Source: an uncultured Candidatus Binatia bacterium (lineage in GTDB: Bacteria > Desulfobacterota > Binatia > UBA9968 > JAJDTQ01). Taken from it: DNA of 64,000 bases. This document shows positions 7,341 through 57,989 of the stretch, one piece after another. The notes under the pieces are model-generated. The model was not told the origin of the DNA. It ran no database searches and saw nothing but the letters and a program-made list of their open reading frames with translations. A program made the translations under genes and the position numbers. The stretch is taken from positions 1,792,001-1,856,000 of the forward strand of contig OZ219754.1 of the NCBI GenBank assembly GCA_964291295.2, read 5' to 3'. Position 1 is the stretch's first letter, and each line of letters starts with the position of its first letter.

Positions 7341-7601
7341 ACCGCAGGCTCCCGCCCGCCCATTCATCGGTCCGCGCCCGGCTGCCTTGTCGCTGGGTGC
7401 ATGCCATCAACCATCGAAGCCTCTGGACAAACACACCCGGGTTCTTCCGCTGTTCCCCAACGTGGGATGATCCTGGCCGGCAAAGCCGCGGGTATTGCAA
7501 CCGCTCGCTGTTTCGGCTATCAGGTATGGGCTGTCCGCTTCGGCCGTGCGCCGGCACGGACATTCTCTCGACCATACCATTCGAGACGGAAGGGTGAGGC
7601 C

Positions 7602-10600
7602 ATGACGAAAATACCGCGCGGTTGTTCGGACGGGAAACACGGTTGCCTCATGCACGCGGGGCCTTCGTCCCCCCCCCCCCCCCCCCCCCCCTTCCAACAT
7701 CCACTCTCTCTCTGGGCGCGAGGCTGATCCGGTGCGCGCCTCCGCCAGAAGCCCACGACACCTGAGGGCGGGACTGCTCGCCGGCCTCTTCCTGCTCACG
7801 TTCGCCGCCGCCCTCGCGCCGCAGACGGCACAAGCACAGATCATTGATCTCACCGTAACGCCGGGCAACGGCAAGGTCGACCTGTCCTGGAGCTGGAGTG
7901 GCATTACCGGACAAATCAGGTGGCGGTACCACACATTCGGAGCTGCAACCAACAGCGCAACGGTTACGCCTTCCCCAGGGAAGCGAACTGGTACAGCGAC
8001 GATAACTGGTCTGACCAACGGCCAGATATATGATATCGAGATGCGCGCGAGTCGTCCTAGCGGGATTCATATTGGAACTTCCAACCGTGTCAGGGTGGTG
8101 CCGAACGACCTCGTCATCGTGTCCGCCACCGGGCTGGACAGCACAATACGGCTCAAATGGGACTATCAAGGTAGCCAAACCGGCAGTGGCTGGCAACATC
8201 AGACTTTTGAGGGAACAGGCGGCGGCCCATGGAAACAGCTGGCAGACTATTCTGCCGCCCGCGGGGCTGATATTCGAAATCTTGTTAACGGCAGAACCTA
8301 CAATATCGCTATTCGGTATCTGAGCGGCGGGGGCGGCTCCCACGCTGATTCCGTGCTCCACAACATTGGCTGGGTCAGCGCCACGCCGCGGGGGTCGACC
8401 CCGACGCTGGTTTCCGGCTCGAACGCCAGCGCCGCGGTCGAGTCGACCGGGGCGACGACGCTGGTGTGCTACAACCTTCTGGCGGCCTCGCAAGAAACCC
8501 CGCAAGGCTTGGTCAAGTATCTGGAGGCGCGCGCGGGCATGAGCGCCGTGCCTGCGCACAGCGTACTTGCCGATTCGAGTCTCGGCGTCGAGATCACCCA
8601 GGCCCCCGCCGGCATCACCAAGGGGCGCGGCGTCAACCTCAGTCCCTGCGTCAATCTCGGAGTGGGCGCGCATACCGTCACCTGGAGCTGGAAGGGCCGC
8701 GACGGCACTGCCGTGGCCGCCACGACCTCCACCACGATCACCGTGGCGGAGAGGGTCTCCAGTCCCAAGACGATCACGCTGTCGGCGTCCCCGTCGGCCA
8801 CGATCACCGAGGGCAACTCCGGTTCGACGGATGTCACCATCACCTTCACCCTCAGTGAGTCTGCGCCCGCGGGCTTCTCGGTTAGCTTGGGTTATCCCGC
8901 GGACATTGGCACAGCCACTGCCTCCGGCAAGGGATCTAACCCCTGCGATCCGCCTCTGCTTCCGAAGGGCACGGACGTGTGCCTCCCGGACGGCGTTATT
9001 GTCTCCATCGCCGAAGGCGAGACCCAGGGCACGAAGATCGTCCGCATACTCGGTGACACCCGGGAAGAACCGGACGAGACGATAAACCTCATCGGCTACC
9101 AGGACGACTGGGCCACCGGCAGGCTCACCCTGACCATCAGGGACGACGACGAGGGCGCCACCAAACCGGCCAGGCCGAGGGGCCTGTCGGCGGAAGCGGG
9201 CAATGCGCAGGTGGTGCTGACCTGGACCGATCCGGAGGACGATTCGATCACGGGGTATCAGGTGCAGAAGAAGAAGGGGAGCGCGGCCTGGGGCAGCTGG
9301 ACCGACCTCTCCGGTTCGGACGCGGACACCGTGATCCACACGGTGACGAGTCTGGACAACGACAGCGAATACCGCTTCCGCATCCGGGCGAAGAACGGTT
9401 CCGGCAACAGCGCCGCGTCGGCGGCGGTGAGCGCGACGCCGGCTGCCAATCCCAAGCCGTCCAAGCCGGTGCTGACGGCGGTGGCGGGTAACCGTTCGGT
9501 CACCCTGAGCTGGCCCGCCCAGACGAATATCGGGAATTGGGGTTACGAGTACAAGAGCGGGGCCGGCAGTTGGATCGCCAGGACGGTTTCGGACGGCAGC
9601 GCGACAAGCACGGTGGTGACGGGACTGACGGCCGGGACGGAATACACGTTCCGGCTGTTCGCCCGCCGCAGCAGCGGCGGGTCGTACCTTTCGTCGGTGT
9701 GGTCGGACCAGGTGACGGCGACGCCGTATGCCCTGTCGGCGCCGGTGCTGACAGGGGCCACATCGAATGTGGCCAGCTATAGTCTGGGGGTCCAACTGAC
9801 GTGGACCCATAGTGGTGACCTTCTCCCCAGTGGAGCCAGCTGGTTTCATTGGCAGATGGGTTATCGTCTCAAGGGGAGCACCACTTGGCAGGAAACCGCT
9901 CGCACGATCAGTTCGTCGGTACGTTCGGCGCGGACGGTTTCCTGGGAGGGAGGCGGCTACCCCGAGGGTGCGGTGGTGGAGGTGCGGGTCCGGGGACGGG
10001 GGTTGAATGATCAGACTGGCGTCTGGTCCAATATCCGCACGGTGACCCTCAGTGACGATGATGATGACAGGCCAGCCCTGACGTTCACCAGAGCGCCGGT
10101 GACGGTGGAGCCCGGGGCCGCCGCGACCTACACGGTGGCGTTGACGCAGGCGCATGCGGGCACACTGTCGATCGCGAGCGACGACACGGCCACGGCGACG
10201 GTGGACCCGGCGAGCCTGACCTTTACGGCGGTCAACTACAACACGGGTCAGACGGTGACGGTGACCGGGGTCGGCAACGGCACGGCGACGATCAACCACG
10301 CCTTCCGGCTGACGGGAGCTTCCGCGGATGCGATACCGGACGCGGGGACGGTGGACGTGACGGTGGCCGATACGCCGGGGGTGACGGTCTCGACGGCGGT
10401 GCTGACGGTGGTGGAGGGTGACTCCGGCACCTACACGTTGCGGCTGAACAAGGCGCCGTCGAGCGATGTGACGATAAGGGTGGACGGCGCTTCGGGGGAC
10501 GTGACGGTGGCGGGCGCGCCGCTGACCTTCACCACGTCCAACTGGAACAAGCCGCAGACGGTGACGGTGAACGCGGGGACGGACACGGACAATATCAGGG

Positions 10601-55805: not shown

Positions 55806-56192
55806 CTGTTTCCGTGACAGGATCACGAGGGTGTGGACGTGGCGGCGCTGGCCGAATCCTACTTGGGGAAGGTCGGAATGACCCGGAATTCTCTGGGGCT
55901 GAATCAAAACAATCCACAGGTTGCGAGTGGCTCAATGTCGCGCCATGGCCTTGTTCGGACTTTCCTTGGACTTCATGGGGTGAAGCACGCGATTGCGAAG
56001 GAGTTGAACGTATTGATCCATGAGGAAGTGAGAAGAACGACTTTGACGGCAGTAAGCAAGACGGATCGGGAGACTTGTTCAAACCATACCCTCCTGAATC
56101 CCTGCTGCTGTTGCCGGAGGGAAGGTCCGCGGCATCGTGCCAAGGCGCATTTTACCAAGGCCGCTTCTGAAGGCGGCAGGGGAGGTTCGAGA

Positions 56193-57989
56193 ATGAAAAG
56201 GACGAAGAGGATATTGATGTACCGGATGATGCACAGGAATCTGGCGGCGGTCTTCTGCGCGGTGGTGCTGGCCATCGGGCTTGCGGCATGCGGCGGCAGC
56301 AGCAACAACAAAACCCCGGCGACGACCCCGGATCCGCCGCCGGCGGGGCCGACGGCAGTGGAGACGGCGATAAAGGAGGCCCGGACGGCGGCGATGGCGG
56401 CGTCGGGCAAGGCCAAGACGGCGTCGGACAACGCGGGGACGTCGGCGGATGAGGCGGAAGCGGCGATCCTGGGTGTCGTGCCCGTTTTCATTCCCAAGGG
56501 GGAGATGACGGCGAAGAGCTACGCGGATGCGGCCCGGACGGCGGCGGACATGGCGAAGGCGGAGTACGACAAGGCCAAGATGGAGTCGGACAAGGCTGCG
56601 GCCACGAGCGACTTGCGTGTGGCGGCCCAGGCCGAAGTCGATGCCGAGGCGGCGCAGGCGAAGGCCGAGGCTCAGGCGGCGCAGGCCGCGGAAAAGGCGA
56701 AGATGGCGAAGGATGCCGCGGCCATGGAGGTCCGGCATGTCGAGGGTCTGACCTACAGGTACGGCGACACGACCATCACGGCGGATGCACCTAAGGCCTC
56801 ACTCACGACCGGGGGCGAGACTGTGGTCACCGGCAAGATAGGCAACCTCAACGAGGACTCACAGACTTACGCAAAGAAACCCGTCCAATACGTGGCGGCA
56901 ACGGGAAACAAGCCGGAGGTCGTTTCCCGGACGGGATTCGTTGCACGGACCATCCCTATTGGTTACTACGCCGACTCGGAGAAGTCCCGTCTCTTCCTGG
57001 TGGACAAATATGTCAGCAACACCAAGGCGGTGAAGGCCTACCGCAAGGCGCAGAACGCCAGCGGTAATCCGATCAACGTGACCGCCCCGGTCACGGCCGA
57101 GAACCCGTTCGGTTCGGTCACCGCAGGGGGAAAGTCCTACAAGGTCATGCGGGCGGAGAGCGAGTTCTATGTTGTTGACACCCAAGATGGTAAGAAATTC
57201 GACAAGACGAATGCTTGGGACACGATCAATCGTGCCACCAAGGACTCGAATGCGGGCGTGGGCATCTACTACTACAACAACGGCAGCAAGGACATCTATC
57301 TCCTGCGCACCGGAACGAGCGGGACCGATAACTTCACCTACCGGCAGATTTTCGTCTACGATGTGCCGGATTTCCCGGAGGCGAAGCCCTATGAGCACAT
57401 GAACTACGGCAGGTGGGACACGCAGAAGTCAGTCGGTGCCGACCTTGGCATCGCATTTGTCCAGGCGCTGCCCGGCAAGGGTCCGACCCCGGCGGCCAAC
57501 CTGCCAGGCTTCGGAAGTGCCACCTACAGGGGCCATGCATCTTGGCAGCTGCGCCAACAAAACCCTCAAGGCGCAGGAGGTAAACGCGGTGATGAAGGAA
57601 CCGCAACCACGACGGTGGATTTCGGCAAAAGCACCATCAGGACCGATCTTTTCACTGCGCCTGGCAGGATTGTAACACTGGGCCCCTATGACGGGATTCT
57701 CGCCACGTTGCAAGGCACCATCGACGGCAACGGCTTCTCGGGCAGCAAAGTGACCAATGTCAACGCCGAAGGCATCAGTTACAATACACCGGGATTTTCA
57801 GTCCCTGCCGCCGGCCATCGTGGCGCCGTGGGTCTTGCCACGAGCGCGGACGGCAGCCTGTACGAGGTGAAGGAGTACCGCGGCCAATTCTTCGGACCGA
57901 ACGCCGAAGAGGTGGGAGGCGTGTTCTACATCACGTCCAAGGACAAGAAGAAGGGCGAGTTGCTAGGCTCTTTCGGCGGCCGCAGGTAG
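56193..57989 (+). CDS. TbpB-like surface lipoprotein copy C
   Basis: [16 protein letters not shown] lipobox; GSATYRG, TVDFGKSTI, GTIDGNGFSG, GQFFGPNAEEVGGVF, GSFGGRR. Confidence 0.87.
   Translation: MKRTKRILMYRMMHRNLAAVFCAVVLAIGLAACGGSSNNKTPATTPDPPPAGPTAVETAIKEARTAAMAASGKAKTASDNAGTSADEAEAAILGVVPVFIPKGEMTAKSYADAARTAADMAKAEYDKAKMESDKAAATSDLRVAAQAEVDAEAAQAKAEAQAAQAAEKAKMAKDAAAMEVRHVEGLTYRYGDTTITADAPKASLTTGGETVVTGKIGNLNEDSQTYAKKPVQYVAATGNKPEVVSRTGFVARTIPIGYYADSEKSRLFLVDKYVSNTKAVKAYRKAQNASGNPINVTAPVTAENPFGSVTAGGKSYKVMRAESEFYVVDTQDGKKFDKTNAWDTINRATKDSNAGVGIYYYNNGSKDIYLLRTGTSGTDNFTYRQIFVYDVPDFPEAKPYEHMNYGRWDTQKSVGADLGIAFVQALPGKGPTPAANLPGFGSATYRGHASWQLRQQNPQGAGGKRGDEGTATTTVDFGKSTIRTDLFTAPGRIVTLGPYDGILATLQGTIDGNGFSGSKVTNVNAEGISYNTPGFSVPAAGHRGAVGLATSADGSLYEVKEYRGQFFGPNAEEVGGVFYITSKDKKKGELLGSFGGRR

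Follow-up and report, generated by a model that had tools for sequence, protein, structure and literature searches.

Long poly-G/C tracts at surface-protein and methyltransferase genes suggest a contingency-locus repertoire in an uncultured Binatia bacterium

A 64,000-base stretch of an uncultured Candidatus Binatia genome (G000:C1:1792001-1856000, G+C 66.6%; hereafter the window) carries three very long homopolymers, C23, C17, and G17, at the genes for two autotransporters and a TbpB-like lipoprotein. These tracts probably belong to a genome-wide repertoire of slipped-strand contingency loci, which comprises approximately 35 poly-G/C tracts in this 3.70-Mb genome of three contigs. Homopolymer phase variation is regarded as characteristic of pathogens and commensals adapted to a host. 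The mechanism is known from pathogens, and no description of it in Binatia was found; notable here are the scale, the co-existence of three designs, and the built-in locked alleles. The initial annotation had proposed a homopolymer switchboard on surface-protein genes across the window, and this idea emerges stronger than claimed, with 35 tracts genome-wide. Its phase-variation interpretation is supported overall, barring the weight placed on G7 runs and proof within a population. Positions below are those of the window (feature coordinates in Table 1); positions of six or seven digits are genome coordinates.

Census and placement of the long G/C tracts

Homopolymers exceeding 7 nt in the window are limited to C23 (tract 1, 7669-7691), C17 (tract 2, 26433-26449), and G17 (55782-55798), and our recount agrees with the earlier description of these as the only very long runs of the 64 kb. 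The next-longest runs are four of G7 (31713, 40886, 41425, and 53455) and one of T7. All three tracts lie outside housekeeping genes, as had been stated. Across the genome, G/C runs of 5, 6, 7, 8, 9, and 10 nt number 5,592, 938, 117, 15, 8, and 2, respectively, and the 11-nt class is empty. Beyond this gap stand 35 G/C tracts of 12-27 nt with a mode of 16-19 nt, giving a bimodal length distribution. A/T runs reach 9 nt at most and show no excess. The number of G/C runs decays approximately 0.13-fold per added base, which by extrapolation predicts well under 0.1 runs of at least 12 nt per genome. Given 35 observed against fewer than 0.1 expected, repeat tracts are over-represented relative to chance and constitute a real, non-random feature of the whole genome rather than a peculiarity of the window.

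All 35 tracts were classified using their flanks, open reading frame (ORF) context, Pfam matches, a lipobox scan, and PADLOC. A genome-wide scan for long C/G runs with a test of gene-class enrichment had been proposed as a check on the switchboard idea; it places 32 of the 35 tracts on four contingency-type gene classes, namely autotransporters (nine), TbpB-like lipoproteins (nine), RTX genes (seven), and DNA methyltransferase or restriction genes (seven). The three remaining orphans are intergenic and resemble remnants of the same promoters and leaders. An expression-determining position, either a promoter spacer or a 5' coding region, is occupied by 3/3 tracts in the window and 32/35 in the genome. 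The nine autotransporter tracts precede the signal peptides of giant fn3-repeat proteins by 26-100 nt, and 9 of the 14 PF03797 matches in the genome are tract-linked (one link is inferred across a contig junction). Among tracts at TbpB_B_D lipoprotein genes, five are coding and directly follow the lipobox, and four are in the promoter. RTX tracts are found in promoters in six cases and in coding sequence in one (G12).

The seven methylase tracts, all outside the window, lie within DNA methyltransferase or restriction endonuclease-methyltransferase (REase-MTase) genes, each of which matches a methyltransferase or REase-MTase profile. Their types are type IIG, HmaB/DUF1156 adenine methylases (one adjoining a GajB-like helicase), DrmMI-like, and type III Mod. 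Three of the seven genes are split at their tracts. In the type III Mod, the break falls exactly at the tract, with the two halves matching profile positions 74-621 and 622-983. Collectively, these seven loci represent a candidate multi-phasevarion.

Three proposed designs for tract-dependent expression

Slipped-strand mispairing during replication would add or remove bases at each tract. With every tract placed where expression is decided, the genes would flip independently of one another, and the population would become a mosaic of surface and methylation types. We infer that tract length changes at a high rate within the population and that length sets expression. Three designs would convert length into expression: a promoter dial, a coding tract behind the lipobox, and a tract in the leader of the autotransporters.

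In the leader design, a poly-C tract would separate a Shine-Dalgarno (SD) sequence and ATG from the signal peptide, such that one length class in three would join the start to the protein. Neither C23 nor C17 is in the joining length class in the consensus. The leader ATG of autotransporter 1 lies 67 nt upstream of C23 and reads through the tract, but its frame is out of register with the main ORF and ends at TGA 7725-7727. The leader ATG of autotransporter 2 lies 94 nt upstream of C17. Across autotransporter paralogues, the SD and ATG are conserved 67-108 nt upstream of the tract, and leader frames enter the tracts as poly-proline. The ggacgggaggatgagatc-ATG context is identical in tract 2 and in the paralogues at 3071512 and 3343886. 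At 3071512 (C15) and 896843 (C17), the leader ATG shares the frame of the autotransporter ORF; it is out of frame in both window genes, at 2911885, and at 3343886 (C14). This distribution favors the action on reading frame between start codon and signal peptide that had been claimed for two of the tracts, and the same arrangement of start codon, poly-C, and signal peptide is found in the sister species G023.

Both window proteins exceed the PF03797 cut-off of 26 bits, in keeping with classical (type Va) autotransporters and with the type V route first assigned to them. The full-length scan listed no such family; when the C-termini (338 amino acids) were scanned alone, autotransporter 1, which ends in ...LRGALRW, scored 35.4 bits and autotransporter 2 scored 42.9 bits, compared with 42 and 41 bits, respectively, in the genome search. 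A PDB sequence search with the autotransporter C-terminus returned no match. Signal peptides were read by eye from the sequence and feature a basic n-region, a hydrophobic core, and AQA or ARA before Q. The block GAGG-C-TGA-TCCG-GTG, which precedes the signal peptide of autotransporter 1, occurs in paralogues as GGGGCTGAGCCGGTG or GGGGCTTAGTCCGGTG. No sigma-70-like hexamer pair spans or flanks either autotransporter tract, and a promoter reading of tracts 1 and 2 was dropped in favor of the translational one. A palindrome of 15-17 nt (GCGCGAGCGCCTCGCGC) is present in the leaders of four autotransporter paralogues, 10-15 nt upstream of the poly-C; it is degenerate at tract 2 and absent from tract 1. 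Two open frames of 10,794 and 10,112 amino acids (G000:C1:2348994-2381000 and 3618000 to the contig end, continuing into 1-5081) end in autotransporter barrels. Both appear to begin at poly-C tracts, at genome positions 2349145 and 5012, and the second would cross the contig junction for a total of ~11,800 amino acids.

As a promoter dial, the tract would fill the spacer between the -35 and -10 elements of lipoprotein and RTX promoters. The 20-nt spacer at the window G17 would render that promoter weak or off, and our promoter scanner made no call across it. The G15 lipoprotein paralogue, by comparison, has a 17-nt spacer and is called as TTGACA-17-TAAAGT with 10/12 matches, which agrees with the promoter-spacing action attributed earlier to one tract. 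Four lipoprotein promoters align base for base save for tract lengths of 15, 17, 17, and 17. An RTX promoter with G18 is likewise called, as TTGACG-17-TATGGT. The lipoprotein promoter is followed by a leader in which four paralogues share at least 90% identity over ~280 nt, with indels that break any frame; the leader is thus more conserved than the lipoproteins themselves, which are ~80% identical (paralogues at L017, L025, and L020). Rfam at gathering thresholds identified no family in the window, including this leader. A motif, (A/G)TGACAGGA, is located 15-20 nt past the -10 element in lipoprotein and RTX promoters alike.

In the lipobox design, one length class in three of a coding tract directly after the lipobox would be in frame. 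Pure tracts of C16-C22 occupy this site in five paralogues; four keep the reading frame, and the fifth (2270462) meets a stop codon. The lipobox motif has 22 matches in total, 18 of which are lipoprotein N-termini. Within the window, this design is represented only by an interrupted, fixed in-frame copy at 53455-53480 in the second lipoprotein gene (minus strand), which the initial annotation overlooked. The interrupted site reads CCTACCCCACCTCCCCCCTCCCCCCCA and encodes PTPPPPSPP. Both window lipoproteins match TbpB_B_D (PF01298) at 65 and 64.4 bits (cut-off 26) and possess a lipobox, upholding their description as surface lipoproteins. Full SlipAM matches number two elsewhere in the genome, and one of these (1459459) adjoins a lipoprotein array. 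The region spanning 50010-59600 constitutes a lipoprotein island that appears to have been rearranged by mobile elements. It also holds TAG-bearing lipoprotein fragments (~50570-51392, minus strand) and a gene with DDE_Tnp_1 and DruA-like domains (53296-55716). A similar DruA/Tnp_DNA_bind gene lies beside the RTX tract at 699787.

A second interrupted run is located at the RTX locus, where G6AG7 (40879-40892) stands directly downstream of TTGACT (40869-40874) and upstream of a small RTX gene (ATG at 40952). The window promoter, TTGACTTGAT-G6AG7, is homologous by blastn to sister promoters with uninterrupted tracts, TTGACTTGAT-G14 at 2138419 and TTGACTTGA-G17 at 699787. Judged from these comparisons, G6AG7 and 53455-53480 look like point-interrupted, stabilized versions of the switch. 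The presence of RTX repeats was borne out by a HemolysinCabind match (PF00353, 50.3 bits) for the gene at 40952-41935; sister RTX genes reach 553 bits. The frame of the window gene breaks 48 codons before a conserved C-terminus (...DFDFLG and stop) that is intact in an aligned paralogue and out of frame here. The G7 and G6AG7 runs are positioned at the RTX gene as had been described, but the G7 run carries little weight as evidence of a switch, given that 7-nt runs are common in this genome.

Length variation, conservation, and competing explanations

Near-identical duplicates, whose flanks carry 0-3 substitutions per 0.8-2.7 kb, differ in tract length in six of seven pairs, by up to 4 nt (Table 1). 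The copies at 3071512 and 3343886, for example, match at all but one of 400 nt upstream and at every one of 2,280 nt downstream, but their tracts are one C apart. Autotransporter 2 and its duplicate at G000:C1:585270-586137 have a single mismatch in 847 nt downstream, and homology ends 3 nt upstream of the tract. Abrupt shifts in identity at the tract are seen in several further paralogue pairs. On the basis of such junctions, the tracts may act as sites of recombination. Two public sequencing runs from one study contain the window at a k-mer depth of ~100 and were compared as contigs, not as reads. Their contigs stop at or inside the tracts (that of run X2 ends inside C23), and a run X1 contig covering 7300-7703 has 5 letters fewer at tract 1 than the window. 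The runs may include the source sample, and both the contig breaks and the 5-letter difference are suggestive only. The earlier statement that all loci read as OFF or suboptimal stands for the three window loci; genome-wide it does not, as ON and OFF copies are mixed among both the autotransporter leaders and the lipobox class.

Among named matches to the transketolase gene, the best (90-93% identity) are Candidatus Binatia metagenome-assembled genomes and one older "Deltaproteobacteria" bin, and those ranking next are ~75% identical. Comparison with related genomes indicates that the trait is lineage-wide. G/C runs of at least 13 nt were found in 21/24 other genomes of the genus, in 4/5 of one neighboring family, and in 2/11 of another; in fragmented relatives, many of these runs sit at contig ends. 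Of 150 other genomes drawn from across the phylum (completeness at least 90%), 108 lacked any tract of at least 14 nt, and only G144 (same class, 25 tracts) and G180 (22 tracts) exceeded 20, compared with 32 in the genome under study. The sister species G023, assembled as a single contig, contains 35 tracts of 12-30 nt, which adjoin four YadA trimeric autotransporters, one LRR-fn3 autotransporter, several secreted families without a Pfam match, and a few metabolic genes. Several of the G023 families consist of a start codon, 5-16 codons, poly-C, and a signal peptide, with in-frame and out-of-frame copies, and these leaders support translational control in general. The window's own gene families are nearly species-specific: the tract 2 leader DNA retrieved nothing meaningful from 27 other genomes of the genus, and the lipoprotein family gave two weak matches only. 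Because tracts recur in relatives on other, species-specific families, the mechanism appears to persist as its targets are replaced, a pattern expected of contingency loci. At G023 loci L131, L144, L146, and L153, YadA genes are preceded by ATG-AAC-CTG-AAA-ACA-ATG-AAT-AAT-CTC-ACC and then C12-C19; in all four, the short leader frame stops shortly beyond the tract, or the tract has no long frame behind it.

A number of observations weigh against phase-variable switching or limit how finely it can be read. MutS and MutL genes are present in the genome, and mismatch-repair loss was accordingly rejected as the cause of the long tracts. Every autotransporter copy retains an SD-GTG directly before a canonical signal peptide and downstream of the tract, meaning that the tract may not gate translation simply. 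The OFF call for autotransporters is model-dependent because this start is retained, and in-frame copies would give the signal peptide an unusually long extension of 45-65 amino acids. At the lipoprotein gene, the start codon is found at ~56193 instead of the 55833 given previously; the G17 promoter thus lies ~400 nt upstream, and a separate promoter-like sequence, TTGACT-16-AAAAAT, occurs just upstream of it at 55729-55756. One RTX promoter with G17 was not called at any spacing, and the G7 within the RTX gene is one of 117 G/C runs of that length in the genome and alone is no evidence of switching. One duplicate pair has equal tracts, and the one-base differences between duplicates could reflect consensus error at long homopolymers. 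Exact tract lengths and ON/OFF calls are provisional. Other species offer no orthologous loci for comparison of tract lengths, leaving paralogues only. Lastly, scans of JGI metagenome contigs with exact patterns for the lipoprotein-promoter and lipobox flanks yielded 0 matches.

The retained GTG suggests an alternative for the autotransporters that we consider rather unlikely, in which the tracts are hypermutable but do not work as a simple frame switch. The SD-ATG would instead open an upstream ORF (uORF), the real start would be the SD-GTG, and the tract would serve as a three-level dial. Depending on length, the uORF would fuse to the protein, stop at a TGA or TAG 4 nt before the GTG and favor re-initiation, or overrun the GTG by 30-100 nt and occlude the start. 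All phases are seen among the copies: fusion at 896843 and 3071512; a stop 4 nt before the GTG, conserved in one of the two non-main frames, at tract 1 and 2911885; and overrun at tract 2 and 3343886, where the leader frame ends 57 or 97 nt past the tract (57 nt for tract 2, beyond the GTG). The block (GAGG or GGGG)-C-T(G/T)A-NCC(G/A)-GTG is kept in divergent paralogues, the GTG yields a textbook signal peptide, and the leader peptide is poorly conserved among paralogues. Shared ancestry or the in-frame residues (A/E)(E/D)PV, however, can account for conservation of the block, and the G023 leaders, whose start lies 5-16 codons before the tract in several families with no evident separate start, fit plain frame switching. 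Likewise rather unlikely in our estimate is a wider, genus-wide role in which unusually long tracts (12-30 nt) act beyond binary switching through three translational outcomes, poly-proline pausing, recombination junctions, and locking interruptions. Under such a scheme, a poly-proline leader would add ribosome pausing, recombination at tracts would reshuffle promoters or leaders and gene bodies, and point interruptions (53455-53480 and G6AG7) would lock a chosen state.

Tracts that are real but static, serving as poly-proline or poly-glycine linkers, promoter spacers, or G-quadruplex/i-motif elements of fixed length, are quite improbable. G runs of at least 15 nt could fold into a G-quadruplex, and a poly-proline segment after the lipobox is a plausible linker, with non-tract lipoprotein paralogues being proline-rich at that site; the presence of MutS and MutL and the one equal duplicate pair would also fit. 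Fixed length is at odds, however, with the six of seven near-identical pairs that differ, the out-of-frame copy at 2270462 that stops after its tract, the three split methylase genes, and the 5-letter difference in the contig from another run. To our knowledge, pure runs of such length are strongly slippage-prone in every organism studied, and the interrupted variants found at corresponding positions suggest occasional fixation of one state by selection. That the homopolymers are sequencing or assembly artefacts is extremely improbable. Errors in long-read consensus fall mainly at long homopolymers, and the runs at contig ends in fragmented relatives could be read in this light, but generic error would not produce a distribution that lacks 11-nt runs and shows no A/T excess. 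Moreover, each family has tracts at homologous positions that make functional sense in 4-9 of its paralogues, contigs of two runs from another assembly method reach into or across tract 1, and the single-contig G023 has the same number of tracts. Slipped-strand contingency loci remain our preferred explanation for the repertoire.

Relation to known systems and neighboring genes

Close parallels in placement come from Neisseria meningitidis and N. gonorrhoeae, where poly-G/C occurs in the promoters of porA, opc, and fetA, in the signal-peptide region of pilC, and in the coding sequence of hpuA and hmbR. As in Neisseria, G/C tracts here occupy -35/-10 spacers and the 5' coding region ahead of or inside the signal peptide; the targets include outer-membrane proteins and TbpB/HpuA-type surface lipoproteins, putatively exported by Slam; loci number in the dozens; and MutS and MutL are present. 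Neisseria tracts are typically 7-14 nt, whereas those described here are 12-27 nt, and the organism is a 66% G+C uncultured Binatia not known as a pathogen. The fn3 autotransporter and RTX families are species-specific expansions, and switching here is predicted. Similar to the Campylobacter jejuni phasome and Helicobacter pylori, the genome has tens of poly-G/C tracts, almost no other repeat type, and restriction-modification targets. Those organisms, however, are AT-rich, lack MutS/MutL-type repair, and switch mostly glycosylation and flagellar genes, in contrast to the secreted and surface proteins of this high-G+C genome, which has both repair genes.

The seven methylase tracts, with one Mod gene split at its tract, resemble the phasevarions built on type III Mod in Haemophilus, Neisseria, Helicobacter, and Moraxella. 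Phasevarion repeats are tetra- or pentanucleotides, whereas these are homopolymers of 13-27 nt that also involve HmaB/DUF1156 and type IIG enzymes. In Bordetella pertussis (~67% G+C), the promoters of the surface-structure genes fim2 and fim3 likewise contain a long C-run. Bordetella has a handful of such loci, in which the tract sets the distance between an activator site and the -10 element; here, a sigma-70-like -35 element would be spaced from the -10 element in 10-11 promoters. Haemophilus influenzae lic1, with CAAT repeats between alternative ATGs and three expression levels, illustrates how the autotransporter leaders would work under the uORF/GTG reading. Unlike these leaders, lic1 has a tetranucleotide repeat and encodes a cytoplasmic lipopolysaccharide-modification enzyme, and three-level behavior here is hypothesized. 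Overall, the repertoire matches those of Neisseria, Haemophilus, Campylobacter, Helicobacter, and Bordetella in architecture, gene classes, and locus number; it differs from them in lineage, high G+C content, presence of MutS and MutL, and tract lengths.

Literature searches found no paper linking "Binatota" with "phase variation" or "sponge symbiont" with "phase-variable." In the accessible portions of two Binatota papers (PMC8262859 and PMC9999580), "homopolymer," "phase varia," "autotransporter," and "adhesin" each occur 0 times; one of the two, in the same portions, describes one order of the phylum as sponge-associated. A general survey (PMC2831843) bears on the comparison with known contingency loci. 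A repertoire of this kind implies strong fluctuating selection on the cell surface and restriction barrier, whether by a host, phages, or grazers, and offers a concrete, testable handle on the ecology of a lineage represented by metagenomes only. Such tracts also break short-read assemblies and make ON/OFF calls from a consensus unreliable. The 35 loci, together with the interrupted controls, form a panel for direct measurement of slippage in long-read metagenomes without cultivation.

Table 1. Coordinates of tracts and associated features; window positions unless marked G000:C1 or listed as duplicate pairs (genome positions)
Feature	Location	Strand	Details
Leader start, autotransporter 1	7590..7604	+	SD-like GGTGAGG; ATG 7602-7604
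Tract 1	7669..7691	+	C23; poly-Pro in any frame; between leader ATG and signal peptide
Conserved GAGG-C-TGA-TCCG-GTG block	7720..7734	+	SD, stop in one non-main frame, internal GTG (7732)
Autotransporter 1	7732..13065	+	Signal peptide, fn3-repeat passenger, C-terminal beta-barrel ending in W
Leader start, autotransporter 2	26322..26341	+	SD GGGAGGA; ATG 26339-26341
Tract 2	26433..26449	+	C17; between leader ATG and signal peptide
Autotransporter 2	26461..31989	+	GTG start 26461 or 26476; fn3 repeats
RTX promoter region	40869..40892	+	TTGACT-TGAT-G6AG7; 14-nt interrupted version of sister G14-G18 tracts
Small RTX-repeat gene	40952..41570	+	Frame breaks at G7 (41425-41431) inside gene
C-terminal SlipAM piece	50010..50396	-	Partial match
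TbpB-like lipoprotein	51771..53615	-	Interrupted in-frame tract 53455-53480
Lipoprotein promoter	55774..55805	+	TTGACA (55774-55779)-GT-G17 (55782-55798)-A-TAAAGT (55800-55805); spacer 20 nt
Conserved 5' leader	55806..56192	+	~390 nt, non-coding, promoter to lipoprotein start
TbpB-like lipoprotein	56193..57989	+	Start 56193 or 56217; lipobox LAAC; poly-Pro site replaced by PDPPPAGP
N-terminal Slam-like translocon gene fragment	57967..58812	+	TPR_Slam 29.9 bits, below cut-off 35.2
Palindrome GCGCGAGCGCCTCGCGC	G000:C1 896816		
Palindrome GCGCGAGCGCCTCGCGC	G000:C1 2911910		
Palindrome GCGCGAGCGCCTCGCGC	G000:C1 3343859		
Palindrome GCGCGAGCGCCTCGCGC	G000:C1 3071539		
Methylase tract	G000:C1 43450		L002
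Methylase tract	G000:C1 485035		L004
Methylase tract	G000:C1 605882		L007
Methylase tract	G000:C1 737307		L010
Methylase tract	G000:C1 829088		L011
Methylase tract	G000:C1 1005727		L014
Methylase tract	G000:C1 2287382		L023
Duplicate pair	667172 / 699787		Tract 16 / 17
Duplicate pair	1209838 / 1268469		Tract 10 / 12
Duplicate pair	1431620 / 2553056		Tract 15 / 17
Duplicate pair	3071512 / 3343886		Tract 15 / 14
Duplicate pair	586116 / window tract 2		Tract 19 / 17
Duplicate pair	874052 / 2270508		Tract 16 / 20
Duplicate pair	1209581 / 1268213		Tract 18 / 18

Two further genes are unremarkable and have no relation to the tracts. The plus strand encodes a quinol-type nitric oxide reductase (NorB with a cytochrome c-like domain) at 33899-36205, and there is a ThyX-type thymidylate synthase domain at 38723-40350 on the minus strand, where the upstream half of the long frame is the antisense of the RTX gene.

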